From Candidatus Micrarchaeota archaeon (lineage in GTDB: Archaea; Micrarchaeota; Micrarchaeia; Norongarragalinales; Norongarragalinaceae), in the NCBI GenBank assembly GCA_964408425.1, contig CAYOZI010000006.1, positions 1 through 43,569 on the forward strand: a stretch of DNA of 43,569 nucleotides, written 5' to 3'. A program made the translations under genes and the position numbers. Below are positions 14,012 to 20,847 of the stretch, in pieces; position 1 is the stretch's first letter, and the number at the start of each line of letters is the position of its first letter. Below the pieces are notes generated by a model, which was not told where the DNA came from, did not search any database, and saw only the letters and a program-made list of their open reading frames with translations.

Positions 14012-14026
14012 TTACAGTTTTTGTAA
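14012..14026. promoter_or_regulatory. Operator TTACA-GTTTT-TGTAA
   Basis: Perfect half-sites, upstream of the leftward MVGGC operon. Confidence 0.7.
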
Positions 14027-14081: not shown

Positions 14082-14114
14082 AGCTTTAAATATTCCGGGG
14101 GGGCAGTCTTGTTT

Positions 14115-14492
14115 ATGGTAGACGTAACTGGCTTCCGCTTCGAGAAGAAGGGTTCCAAAACCAAGGGGCTGAAATCGGTTTTGAGCCCGCTTGAAAGCGA
14201 AGTTCTGGATGTATTGTGCAATTGCCACGAGGCCAAGGTTAGGGAAGTCCACAAGAAGCTGCGCGGAAAATGCGCGCTTACCAGCGTAGCGGTCATACTC
14301 GACAGGCTGCACGACAAAAAACTGGTTTCACGCAAGGCCCACTACGGCAGGGGCGGGCAGCACTACGTTTACAGCGCAAAAGCATCGAAAAAAGATTTGG
14401 AATACTCGGTTTTGGAAAACACGGTGAACAAGCTCATGGAAAGTTTTGGGTCGACTGCAGTAAGCTATTTCAACGAGCGTTTCAAGAAGTAA
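14115..14492 (+). CDS. BlaI/MecI/CopY family transcriptional repressor
   Basis: LSPLESEVLDVL, VREVH, TSVAVILDRLHDKKLVSR winged helix, C-terminal dimerisation helix. Confidence 0.9.
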   Translation: MVDVTGFRFEKKGSKTKGLKSVLSPLESEVLDVLCNCHEAKVREVHKKLRGKCALTSVAVILDRLHDKKLVSRKAHYGRGGQHYVYSAKASKKDLEYSVLENTVNKLMESFGSTAVSYFNERFKK

Positions 14493-15303: not shown

Positions 15304-15318
15304 TTACAAAAGTTGTAA
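15304..15318. promoter_or_regulatory. Operator TTACA-AAAGT-TGTAA over the predicted TSS (TATA TTTAAATC at 15279)
   Basis: Perfect half-sites, 10 nt before the next ATG. Confidence 0.7.
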
Positions 15319-15328
15319 AGGTAAAAGC

Positions 15329-15901
15329 ATGGCGCGCGCGTTTTTGGCATTCTTTTGGAAACGGCCTTTGCTGGCCGGAATAGCCGGAGGGCTTTTCCTG
15401 CTGGCCGTATTCTTCGGGCTCATGCTTGCAACAAACCCGTGGAGCGTGGCGTTGTCGGAATTCAACCGCCTGTTTCCGTGGATCGCCGCGCTTGTAACCG
15501 GTTTTTCAATCCAAGCCTACCTTTACGCGGTGCTCAAAAAATCCATTGCCAAAAAAGCGGCTCTGGCAAAGGCAAAGGGCGGGGTTGCAGCCGCGGGAGG
15601 CATGTCAACAACCGCAATGGTCGCCTGCTGCGCGCACCATTTTACGGATTTCCTGCCCTTCATCGGGCTTGCTGCGTTCGCAACCGTCCTGGCGCAATAC
15701 CAGGAATTCTTTTTGCTCATAGGCGTGCTTTCGAACACGGTTGGAATAGTGATGATGCTAGGGGTTTTCAAGAAAATGGGAATAGACGGGAAGTGCCCGA
15801 TAGTCCGGCATCTCTCCGCTTCGCAATGGGATGTCGCGTTCAAAGCAAGCGCGGTTGCTAGTCTTGCGATAATCGCCGCTTACGCGGCCATATTCCTGTA
15901 A
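15329..15901 (+). CDS. Membrane protein with MVACCAHH motif (putative heavy-metal binding/transport)
   Basis: About 5 TM segments; vicinal CC and HH. Confidence 0.85.
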   Translation: MARAFLAFFWKRPLLAGIAGGLFLLAVFFGLMLATNPWSVALSEFNRLFPWIAALVTGFSIQAYLYAVLKKSIAKKAALAKAKGGVAAAGGMSTTAMVACCAHHFTDFLPFIGLAAFATVLAQYQEFFLLIGVLSNTVGIVMMLGVFKKMGIDGKCPIVRHLSASQWDVAFKASAVASLAIIAAYAAIFL

Positions 15902-15918
15902 AAAAAGAGGTGTGGAAC

Positions 15919-15954
15919 ATGACCGGAAAAAAAAGAAGGGGCGGATGCTGCTGA
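15919..15954 (+). CDS. 11-aa micro-ORF MTGKKRRGGCC (not in ORF track)
   Basis: SD GAGGTG at 15907-15912, 6 nt before ATG; stop overlaps next start (TGATG). Confidence 0.55.
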   Translation: MTGKKRRGGCC

Positions 15955-16268
15955 TGAAAAACGAGTATTTGGTTTACGCAATGCTTTTCGTCGGAGTGCT
16001 CCTCTTGGCTTGGAGCGCGTTCTCGACTTTCGCTAAACCGCAGCTTGACAGGGATGCGAGAGGACTGCTGTTGGAAACGCAGGCGAACGAACAGTATTTC
16101 CAACAACAAGCCCTGCAGGTAGGCAACGAGTGCGGCAACCTGAACGACGAGGCAAACGTCCAGCACCTATCCCACCATCCAAGCCAGTTTGCGGATTGCT
16201 TGAAGCAGGTTGACCCAGCGTTTTTGCAGAAAGCCACCGGAAAAACGCTCGGGCAGATAATCGGATAA
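15954..16268 (+). CDS. Membrane-anchored small protein with C...HLSHHP...C motif
   Basis: N-terminal TM helix, then ECGN...QHLSHHPSQFADC. Confidence 0.8.
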   Translation: MKNEYLVYAMLFVGVLLLAWSAFSTFAKPQLDRDARGLLLETQANEQYFQQQALQVGNECGNLNDEANVQHLSHHPSQFADCLKQVDPAFLQKATGKTLGQIIG

Positions 16269-16287
16269 AAAGCAAGGGGTAAAGCGC

Positions 16288-16503
16288 ATGGCGACATTCA
16301 GGGAACACTGGACAAAACTAAAGGAAAACCATTTCGCAATGATGGCGTTGTGCTGCATCTTGCCCGTAATCATAATCGTGGCCCTTCAGATTGCGGGGTT
16401 TGGAGGCGCTTGGCTGTACACGATCGTGATTGGCGCATGCATAGGGGGACACCTGTTCATGATGCATTCCGCCTTAAAAGGAGGGAAAAAAACATGCCAC
16501 TAG
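16288..16503 (+). CDS. Small 2-TM protein, DUF2933-like (HFAMMALCC..P / CIGGHLFMMH)
   Basis: Cys/His/Met motifs typical of copper-locus small membrane proteins. Confidence 0.75.
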   Translation: MATFREHWTKLKENHFAMMALCCILPVIIIVALQIAGFGGAWLYTIVIGACIGGHLFMMHSALKGGKKTCH

Positions 16504-16610
16504 ACTGGAGAAAGCTGACCGAAAACGCGTTCTGGATGGCGGTTTTCACTGTCGCGTTTGTCGCCATGCAGAAAGTAATGCATCCCGGATGGACTTTATT
16601 CGGATGGTAA
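16494..16610 (+). CDS. 38-aa single-TM Trp/Met-rich peptide MPLDWRK...MHPGWTLFGW
   Basis: SD AGGAGG 8-9 nt upstream; overlaps previous stop. Confidence 0.6.
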   Translation: MPLDWRKLTENAFWMAVFTVAFVAMQKVMHPGWTLFGW

Positions 16611-17637: not shown

Positions 17638-18599
17638 AAATGAAGTTCGAATACTACGTGAAGAGCGTCGAATGCGATTCTTGCGAGAAAATAATCGCCA
17701 GGGCGGTTTCAAGGTTTCCCGGCGCCAGCCTAGTCGAATCCGACAGGAAGGCGGGAAAAATAACCATCGAATGCGAACCGGGAGACGAGGTGGAAATAAC
17801 CAAGGCGGTCAGGGAAAAAGGCTACGGGTTATCCACAACCCCCTTGGAAAGCAAAGCCGGGAGCGAAGGAAAAAGCTCGCTTGAAACCGCGAAAAACTTT
17901 TTTTCCAGCGTGATCAACGGAAAAAACGGCTTTGAAATAGAAAGAACGCTTTTGGAAAACACGCTCTTGTCGTTCTTTTTGATTATCGGCGCGGAAATCC
18001 TTTTCGCAGTAATTCTGACATCGTTCGGCAAAACGGTTTTGGAAACGTACAAGTGGCTTTTCCTGCTTTTGGCTGTAGGCGTAAGCGCAAACGCTTTTGC
18101 AGTATGGCATTCCATCGCATACCGCAAGGAATTCACTTGCGGAAGCGGAATGATGGTCGGCATGACGCTCGGAATGATGAGCGGATTCATGATCGGCGCG
18201 CTCGTGGCTGCATCAAACGGAATGTTCGTAGGCAGCGTCGTCGGAATTGCAGTCGGCATGCTCGTCGGAGGGTATTGCGGGTATTGCTGCGGAATAATGG
18301 GCTTGCTGGAAGGGCTCATGGCTGGAATAATGGCGGGAATAATGGGGGCTATGACCGCGATAATGCTTTTGAACGACCACATGCTGGAATTCCTCTTCAT
18401 CCTGTTCGGCGCCTGCACCATAGTCCTCGCCGGGCTCAGCTACATGATTTACAAGGAAGCGGGAGGCGAGGGAAGCAAAACAAGCCTGCCTTCAGGCCTT
18501 ACGCTCGTACTGATAAATGTCGGAATGGCGCTGTTGATAGTCTTGATAATGGTTTTAGGACCCAAAGGGCCGCTGGCTTGGGTTGGATTCGGCGGTTGA
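17634..18599 (+). CDS. HMA domain fused to a Met/Gly-rich multi-TM domain
   Basis: SVECDSC...VREKGY then [40 protein letters not shown]. Confidence 0.85.
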
Positions 18600-18606
18600 A
18601 GGAAAA

Positions 18607-20847
18607 ATGAAAAAAAGCGTTTTCGACGTTGTAGGAATGCACTGCGCTTCGTGCAGCATTTTGATAAAACGCAGGCTAGAGAAAACGCCGGGAGTGAAAA
18701 GCGCCAACGTGAATTACGGCAGCGAAAAGGCTACCGTCGAGTTCGACGAAAAGATTTGCAACGAAGGCAAGATTGTTAAAACCGTCGAGCAAACGGGCTA
18801 CAAAGCATTCCCGCGGGCGGAACCGGCAATGCGAATGAACCACGTGCAAATGCAACACGGCACGCGCATGAACCCGTCGATGGGAATGCCCGGGCACGAC
18901 CACGCCGCGATGCTGAAAGAACAGGAAATGAAGGAATTGAAGCTGAAAGTGATCGTTTCAGCCGCATTATCCCTACCAGCACTGGCGCTCGTCATGCTGA
19001 CGCCCGAATTTCAATTCAAAACGCTCATTCTCTTCATTCTCGCCACACCCGTTCAGTTCTGGGCAGGAAAACAATTCTACCAAGGAACCATCTCAGGGTT
19101 TCGGGTTTACAGCGCCAACATGGACACGCTAATTGCAATGGGCACCAGCGCCGCTTACATCTACTCCGTAGCGTCGCTTTTCGGTTTGGTGATGGAGAAT
19201 TACTTTGAAATCGGAGCAATACTCATCACGTTCGTTTTGCTCGGAAAATACCTGGAAGCGTTGGCTAAAGGCAGGGCATCGGAAGCCATCAAAAAACTCA
19301 TGGGCTTAAACCCCAAAACCGCGATCGTAATCAGAAACGGGAGGGAAAATGAAATTCCCATCGAACAAGTCGCTGTCGGGGATAAGATCAGGGTCAGACC
19401 GGGAGAAAAGATTCCGGTCGACGGAATCGTGGTTGAAGGGGATTCGAGCGTCGACGAGAGCATGTTGACGGGCGAATCCTTGCCTGTGGAAAAAACCAAA
19501 GGCTCGAAAATATACGGCGCGACCATCAATAAGCACGGTTCGCTCACGCTCAAAGCCACAAAGGTAGGCAAAGACACCGTCCTCTCGCAAATAATCAAGC
19601 TCGTAGAGGAAGCCCAAGGCTCGCAAGCGCCAATTCAAAGGTTTGCCGACGAAGTTTCAGCAGTATTCGTGCCGATAGTCATAGTAATCGCAGTGATAAC
19701 GCTCGCGGCTTGGCTTTTGCTTTCGCAACCGTTTTCCTTCGCCCTGGTCGCTGCAGTTTCAGTGTTGGTGATAGCCTGCCCCTGCGCCCTCGGACTGGCT
19801 ACGCCCACGGCAATAATGGTCGGGACCGGAATGGGCGCTGAAAAAGGCATTCTGATAAAAAACGCCGTTGCATTGGAAAGGACCGGGAAAATAAACGCCA
19901 TCGTCTGGGACAAGACCGGAACCATTACGGAAGGAAAGCCGAAAGTGACGGACGTCACGGCGTTGGACAAAAACTACTCCGAAAGGAAGATAGTCGAAAT
20001 AGCCGCTTCCCTCGAAAAGCCCAGCGAACACCCGCTCGCGGAAGCCATCGTAAACCACGCTCTTGCAAAGAAAATCAGGATAGTAAAGATTTCTTCGTTC
20101 AAAGCCGTTGCCGGAAAAGGCGTTTTCGGAAAGCTCGGAACGAGGCATTACTTCATCGGCTCCCCGAAAAACCACTCGCAAAACCTCAAGCAGGTCGAAA
20201 CCCTTGAAAACGAGGGAAAGACGGCGATGCTGCTGTTCGAAAGCGACGCTCGCAACAAAAAACTCAAGCCCGTAGGGGTCATAGCCGTAGCAGACACGAT
20301 AAAACCGAACGCGCGGGCTGCCGTGGAAAAGCTGAGGGAAATGGGAATCGAATCGATTCTGCTTACGGGCGACAACGAACGAACCGCTAAAGCGATTGCA
20401 AAGCAAGCGGGAATCGCAATGGTTTTGGCGAACGTCCTTCCCGCGGACAAGGCAGGCGAAATAAAGATATTGCAGAAAACGGGCAAAATAGTAGCCATGG
20501 TTGGAGACGGGATTAACGACGCGCCTGCACTGGCGCAGGCGGACGTGGGAATGGCAATGGCTTCTGGCACTGACATCGCGATGGAATCAGGAAGCATAGT
20601 TTTGATGAAGAACGACGTCGAGGACGCGCCCCGCGCCCTAAACCTCGGAAGGAAAACCCTCAGGAAAATAAAGCTCGGGTTATTTTGGGCAATGGTTTAC
20701 AACATCGTGGGAATCCCGATTGCAGCCGGCGTTTTCTATTACCAAACGGGATGGCTCCTGTCTCCAGCGATAGCAGGCGGGGCGATGGCGTTGAGCAGCG
20801 TCAGCGTAGTCGCCAACGCATTATCCCTTCGCCTGTCGAAAATCTGA
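18607..20847 (+). CDS. copA: Cu(I)-translocating P1B-type ATPase
   Basis: [34 protein letters not shown] and MALSS; His/Met-rich linker. Confidence 0.96.

Follow-up and report, generated by a model that had tools for sequence, protein, structure and literature searches.

An 11-codon open reading frame upstream of a membrane protein gene in a copper-related cluster of a Micrarchaeota archaeon, probably a lineage-specific by-product of a remodelled ribosome-binding region

The window analysed here, a stretch of 43,569 nucleotides, belongs to a genome of 0.89 Mb in 47 contigs, whose protein relatives are named Candidatus Micrarchaeota and Norongarragalinales by their sources. It carries a copper/heavy-metal gene cluster, the main features of which are listed in Table 1. 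In addition to the genes given there, the cluster holds small membrane proteins (one of them with DUF5676), a cupredoxin-like protein, and two HMA-domain proteins. No Pfam or NCBIfam family was found for the 190-aa membrane protein whose stop codon opens the intergenic gap considered in this work, and its C-terminal coding DNA aligns with the DNA of relatives.

Table 1. Positions of genes and sequence features around the intergenic gap (numbering of the window).
Feature	Position	Strand	Basis or remark
TACA-N5-TGTA palindrome	14013-14025		5' of the repressor gene
Penicillinase_R-type repressor	14109-14492		Pfam Penicillinase_R, 53.9 bits
BlaR1/M56-like peptidase	14505-15257		Gene directly after the repressor gene
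TACA-N5-TGTA palindrome	15305..15317	+	Just 5' of the gene at 15329
190-aa membrane protein	15329..15901	+	Stop TAA 15899-15901 opens the gap; no family assignment
Shine-Dalgarno (SD) sequence GAGGTG	15907..15912	+	6 nt 5' of ATG 15919; 8 nt from the GAGG core
Micro-ORF MTGKKRRGGCC	15919..15954	+	11 codons and stop TGA (15952-15954); read from the sequence
A8 run inside the micro-ORF	15927..15934	+	Sequence and phase; A AAA AAA at 15927-15933 in the micro-ORF frame
Degenerate SD-like GAAGGGG	15935..15941	+	Alignment counterpart of the SD GGAGATGG in same-genus relatives
In-frame alternative ATG of the main gene (MLLMKNEY...)	15945..15947	+	Public gene calls
Main gene, 104-aa N-terminally anchored membrane protein	15954..16268	+	33 homologues; no family assignment
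P-type ATPase of the cluster	18583-20847		

With regard to the control of the cluster, two TACA-N5-TGTA palindromes occur in the window, against 0.08 expected, which makes operator control plausible. Both are likely to be operators of the BlaI/CopY-like repressor and would then define two regulated units; the one at 15305..15317 is a probable operator and likely stands at the head of the transcription unit with the micro-ORF. The repressor itself is BlaI-type and is partnered with the BlaR1/M56-like peptidase. It scores 22.6 bits against the CopY/TcrY model TIGR02698 (cut-off 121.95), and its C-terminal tail is devoid of Cys. Thus, the suggestion in an earlier, sequence-only reading of the locus, that a Cys-containing peptide from the gap substitutes in trans for a missing CopY Cys tail, loses its ground, as with this repressor no Cys tail is missing.

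The gene downstream of the gap (the main gene) encodes a protein with the invariant pattern C-G...V-Q-H-L-x-H-H-P...C, here referred to as the HLSHHP protein. Its homologues are 98-125 aa in length, most of them have their start, MK or MG, where ATG 15954 lies, and a Lys-rich N-terminal extension was detected in none of the 33. No match to the protein was found in Pfam, NCBIfam, or the PDB sequences. The family of about 100 aa and with a membrane anchor appears to be undescribed; it was observed in 31 of the 401 genomes sampled from the class, usually with its gene after that for the 190-aa membrane protein.

The main frame is open from 15873 and includes the potential starts GTG 15912 and ATG 15945, besides ATG 15954. 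In public gene calls, the 107-aa form, which begins at ATG 15945, is found on seven contigs, and the 104-aa form, which begins at ATG 15954, on 11 contigs plus one contig with a one-residue variant. A 90% protein cluster comprises these three forms on 19 contig records, and none of them reaches ATG 15919. GTG 15912 had been put forward, together with ATG 15945, as a start from which the main gene might initiate independently. Position 15914, in the spacer between GAGGTG and ATG 15919, is G in the window and T in the contigs from each of the four other sequencing runs compared, and the GTG start is thereby lost; an independent start at ATG 15945 or ATG 15954 stands as a candidate.

The gap contains a single canonical SD, GAGGTG, and it serves ATG 15919, a start codon 35 nt 5' of that of the main gene and in another frame. 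The ORF opened by this ATG reads ATG ACC GGA AAA AAA AGA AGG GGC GGA TGC TGC TGA. Its stop and the main-gene ATG at 15954-15956 (MKNEY...) have one A in common, giving TGATG at 15952-15956. The anatomy described from the letters alone, with the SD pointing at ATG 15919 and the stop overlapping the main ATG, is therefore borne out. As in coupled gene pairs, the two ORFs run in the same direction and overlap by 1 nt, and the upstream one possesses its own initiation signal. However, the overlap is less telling than it may seem: because the main gene begins with ATGA, the micro-ORF frame holds a second TGA at 15955-15957, and any ORF in this frame must end at the main start. Likewise, the two Cys codons TGC TGC of the micro-ORF are, one base off, the Leu codons CTG CTG of the main frame.

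The GAGGTG sequence is very probably a real ribosome-binding site, because it is fully complementary to the 3' end of the 16S rRNA of the same genome (...GATCACCTCCA), and because 21 of 29 comparable sites open ORFs of at least 50 aa. These 29 are the sites with an ATG 3-10 nt downstream among 121 genomic copies of GAGGTG (both strands); six others open ORFs of 21-49 aa, and two, including the micro-ORF, open ORFs of at most 20 aa. No Rfam family matched the segment 15200-16400 at E values up to 1.

The origin of the GAGGTG segment was also considered. Tandem duplication is a conceivable source of the two modules of A-run, SD, and ATG; Tandem Repeats Finder detected no repeat in 15850-16000, and an alignment of the modules by hand was weak. 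With at most 6 mismatches allowed for the 28-mer taken from it, and at most 4 for the first 20 nt of this 28-mer, the genome contains no second copy, and the idea that the segment was copied from another ribosome-binding site was discarded.

Since the micro-ORF contains a run of eight A, its frame relation to the main gene could in principle be the product of a homopolymer miscount, in which case the true gene would start at 15919; a ninth A would indeed bring ATG 15919 into the main frame. Logan contigs from four runs (four samples, four studies) cover 15896-16030 at a low depth of 3.6-6.3, show no insertion or deletion, and have the A8 run intact, although some of the runs may themselves have yielded the window or stem from a single campaign, so that they are not fully independent. 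It follows that the arrangement is not an error of one assembly, and an assembly error was rejected on this basis. The frame relation between the micro-ORF and the main gene is real in the DNA, and a miscount, which also finds no support among the public protein forms, none of them being extended, is the least probable of all the explanations discussed here. The other assemblies are nearly identical to the window, with one SNP, that at 15914, in 135 bases, and are uninformative on selection. Among the runs listed for 15400-16500, none was an RNA run.

The upstream regions of orthologous main genes were also compared. Loci were drawn from related genomes (61 at first, then 401) as well as metagenome contigs, 58 in total and 57 with a profile hit; three were dropped, one being too close to a contig end and two having a partial N-terminal alignment, and exact duplicates were collapsed. 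The resulting set comprises 39 distinct upstream regions including that of the window, some of which form near-identical pairs and hence are not independent. In 33 of the other 38, the best SD match lies 4-11 nt (counted from the GGAGG core) before the in-frame main start, with a distance of 7-9 nt in 30 of the 33. One further locus (L002) has the same layout by eye (GGAGATGG, 6 nt, ATG), and four (L012, L018, L035, and L049) have no clear SD. The 8-nt spacing of ATG 15919 from its SD falls inside the 7-9 nt range.

None of the other 38 orthologous upstream regions contains an SD that leads solely to an out-of-frame short ORF, the MTGKKRRGGCC micro-ORF, or any upstream micro-ORF with at least two Cys that ends at the main start. 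The three same-genus loci (L002-L004) are no exception: they share an A-run, GGAGATGG, six bases, and ATG GAA AT[A/G] AAA, with the SD directly before the main gene. A conserved small protein or leader peptide would be expected as an ORF kept at the orthologous place, and none is kept here. The sequence-only reading, which had named lack of conservation in relatives as evidence against its own proposals, had offered three functions for the peptide, namely a minimal Cu-binding peptide, a stand-in for the CopY Cys tail, and a metal-responsive leader ORF; with the ORF absent from all 38, these proposals fail.

In a MAFFT alignment, the A-run, GGAGATGG, and ATG of the relatives are placed against A8, GAAGGGG, GGATGCTGCTG, and ATGAAA of the window, and about 20 extra bases (GAGGTG...ACCGG) occur in the gap of the window. 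GAAGGGG matches the anti-SD less well than GAGGTG does, and its distance is 3-5 nt to ATG 15945 and 12-14 nt to ATG 15954. Two loci of another family (L016 and L030) contain an A-run, GAGGTG, a spacer, and an ATG much like the first module of the window, but in frame with the main gene. The nearest relatives are at about 69-74% protein identity.

Another short ORF was noticed in one of these loci. In L020, a metagenome contig with a 72%-identical orthologue and an SD 11 nt from the main ATG, a Lys/Arg-rich 7-codon ORF (MKKRKRR) lies about 40 nt before that ATG. This ORF, whose ATG overlaps the stop of the upstream gene (ATGA), lacks its own SD, and its position is unrelated to that of the micro-ORF in the window. 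Its occurrence in a purine-rich gap indicates that such leaders readily yield K/R-rich mini-ORFs.

Taken together, the comparison suggests, with a probability of roughly 55%, that the ribosome-binding region was remodelled in this lineage, and that the micro-ORF is probably translated and relays ribosomes to ATG 15954 by termination-reinitiation, the peptide itself having no role. In the relatives a strong SD would act directly on the main ATG; here, with about 20 extra bases in the gap, the site orthologous to their SD appears to have decayed to GAAGGGG, and the perfect SD would serve the out-of-frame ATG 15919. The spacings of GAAGGGG fall outside the usual range while both complementarity and spacing of GAGGTG are good, which counts in favour of remodelling. 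Either an insertion in this lineage or a loss in the relatives may have produced the difference. Ribosomes would load at GAGGTG and initiate at ATG 15919, translate 11 codons, stop at the UGA at 15952-15954, and reinitiate either at AUG 15954 within the overlap or, after moving back seven bases, at AUG 15945. Initiation at ATG 15919 is most likely, because the only strong SD has the usual spacing there and the spacing of GAAGGGG is unusual. The micro-ORF would thus be at most a relay that keeps the HLSHHP gene translated. It looks like a lineage-specific by-product and a sequence accident rather than a conserved peptide gene. As to the composition of the peptide, the K/R-rich part results from the purine-rich leader and Cys-Cys from the overlapping CTGCTG codons.

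Termination-reinitiation at ATGA/TGATG overlaps has been documented in an archaeon: the parts of the study by Huber et al. (2019, PMC6728339) that bear on this point report strict coupling for 13 of 14 tested gene pairs, nine of the 14 being from Haloferax volcanii. The two ORFs of the window resemble those pairs in their common direction, the one-base UGAUG overlap, and the SD before the upstream ORF. They differ from the pairs described there in that the upstream partner has 11 codons, is not conserved, is absent from the relatives examined, and is known here from its sequence. Accordingly, of the proposed translational coupling, the anatomy (SD and TGATG) is well founded and the coupling itself is plausible.

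A serious rival to the relay is that the main gene starts by itself at ATG 15954 or ATG 15945 through the weak GAAGGGG, with the micro-ORF being neutral or mildly competing. The alignment of GAAGGGG with the functional SD of the relatives speaks for such a start, as do the next gene (16288), which has AAGGGGT 7-8 nt before its ATG, the 11-nt spacing tolerated in L020, and the public gene calls, which begin at 15954 on 12 contigs or at 15945 on seven. It is nevertheless considered unlikely, though well worth keeping in view, because GAAGGGG pairs less well with the anti-SD than GAGGTG, because its spacings of 3-5 or 12-14 nt compare poorly with the 7-9 nt of 30 of the 33 orthologous loci, and because a ribosome that finishes at UGAUG sits exactly on the main start. 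A different use of the two frames would be a -1 slip, made either by the ribosome on A AAA AAA or in transcription of the A8 run, which would join ATG 15919 to the main frame and yield an HLSHHP protein with a 12-residue Lys-rich N-terminal extension beside the 11-aa peptide. The heptamer is phased as X XXY YYZ requires, and the shifted frame continues without a stop into the main gene; a positive N-terminus before the membrane helix would also be plausible. The -1 slip is improbable, however: a heptamer of this kind without a stimulator is expected to shift rarely, and programmed shifting would call for a nearby stimulatory structure and an arrangement kept in relatives. The fold of 15895-15990 gives a z score of 0.12, with 102 of 200 shuffles folding at least as well, the two-frame arrangement occurs in none of the 38 relatives and the Lys-rich extension in none of the homologues, and the A8 run is not special in a genome with 91 runs of this length or longer, many of them just 5' of starts. 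As to precedents, Escherichia coli ribosomes have been reported to slide along A-runs (PMC4363877), and a programmed -1 frameshift on A-AAA-AAT has been described for fucA1 of Sulfolobus solfataricus (Cobucci-Ponzano et al. 2006, PMC1616953). The window shares with fucA1, as presented in the relevant portions of that article, a phase-correct A-rich heptamer that links two overlapping frames by -1 in an archaeon. On the other hand, fucA1 is described there as uniting two long conserved enzyme halves, with flanking rare codons and a putative stem-loop, whereas in the window the site follows only five codons, folding revealed no structure, and the arrangement recurs in no relative.

The remaining explanations assign a role to copper. 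The 11-aa peptide or its nascent chain might bind Cu via Cys-Cys or make reinitiation Cu-dependent, as could be suspected from the setting in a copper/heavy-metal cluster with cupredoxin-like and HMA-domain proteins and a P-type ATPase, from the two terminal Cys and the strong SD, and from the existence of Cu-sensing upstream ORFs in bacteria such as CruR (PMC9426467). There is nothing in favour of the copper-peptide idea beyond location and two Cys, and it must be regarded as very improbable, in view of the lack of conservation in all 38 other orthologous upstream regions, the account of the Cys codons by the overlapping main frame, the absence of CXXC and of a CruR-like arrest motif, and the absence of any other such SD-led intergenic micro-ORF among the 14 checked of 15 listed cases in the genome. 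CruR (DUF2946) of Bordetella pertussis is a copper-responsive upstream ORF proposed to set downstream expression; according to those sections of Roy et al. (2022, PMC9426467) that describe it, it belongs to a widespread family in which CXXC is conserved, carries the arrest motif RAPP at the C-terminus, and works by Rho-dependent termination. Like CruR, the micro-ORF is a Cys-containing ORF that heads a copper-related operon or lies within one. Unlike the CruR described there, it is archaeal, not conserved, and 11 residues long, which is too short for a Pfam scan, and it contains CC in place of CXXC, without RAPP.

The C-terminus of CopY carries a CxC...CxC Cys motif. The window resembles the CopY situation in having Cys near a copper-regulated operon under a winged-helix repressor of the Penicillinase_R family, and differs from it in the two adjacent Cys of the micro-ORF and in a repressor that has a BlaR1/M56 partner and lies far below the CopY/TcrY cut-off. 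It might also be imagined that the species possesses a young regulatory device of its own, in which copper on the nascent Cys-Cys would set the balance between reinitiation at UGAUG after peptide release, a -1 slip to the Lys-rich extended HLSHHP protein, and a hold at the stop. A young function restricted to this species may be compatible with the lack of conservation, given the distance of the nearest relatives, and this device is rated as more doubtful still than the copper peptide.

A copper-sensing leader or a minimal metallopeptide in a DPANN archaeon, if real, would amount to metal regulation of a new kind. The evidence favours the ordinary outcome, that is, a region remodelled by an indel, in which a perfect SD came to stand on an out-of-frame ATG and a stop-start overlap probably rescues the real gene. 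A short upstream ORF with a stop-start overlap is a kind of feature already known, and the present one is an unremarkable example. It nevertheless carries a caution for annotation, namely that an SD need not mark a gene start, and offers a small natural test case of termination-reinitiation after a very short ORF in archaea.

The recurrence of the architecture in the genome was examined in a scan for an SD followed by a short ORF and a nearby long ORF, which returned 15 cases; 14 were checked and one (C6:14436, the end of the repressor gene) was left out. Apart from the micro-ORF, each checked case falls within a long open frame, precedes a main gene equipped with an SD (C4:37122), or is followed by a long ORF that seems spurious, so that no recurrent architecture emerged. 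A crude count on raw ORFs rather than gene calls gave 39 ATGA, 6 TGATG, and 4 TAATG stop-start overlaps after ORFs of at least 100 aa.

Several minor observations were made in the course of this survey. GAGGTG is rare in the genome, with the 121 copies on both strands comparing with about 436 expected, and runs of at least eight A are frequent, with 91 against about 20 expected (both expectations being hand estimates under uniform composition). At C18:5864 on the + strand, GAGGTG is followed after 8 nt by an ATG that opens a 12-codon ORF resembling the start of a signal peptide (MKNFVLFSILLL), with nothing coding after its stop; a decayed gene may have left it behind. In the window, a 38-codon ORF at 16494-16610, preceded by the SD GGAGG and a 9-nt spacer, encodes a hydrophobic peptide (MPLDWRKL...) and overlaps the 3' end of the 71-aa gene at 16288-16503 by 10 nt; the peptide may represent a further small membrane protein of the cluster that has escaped annotation.
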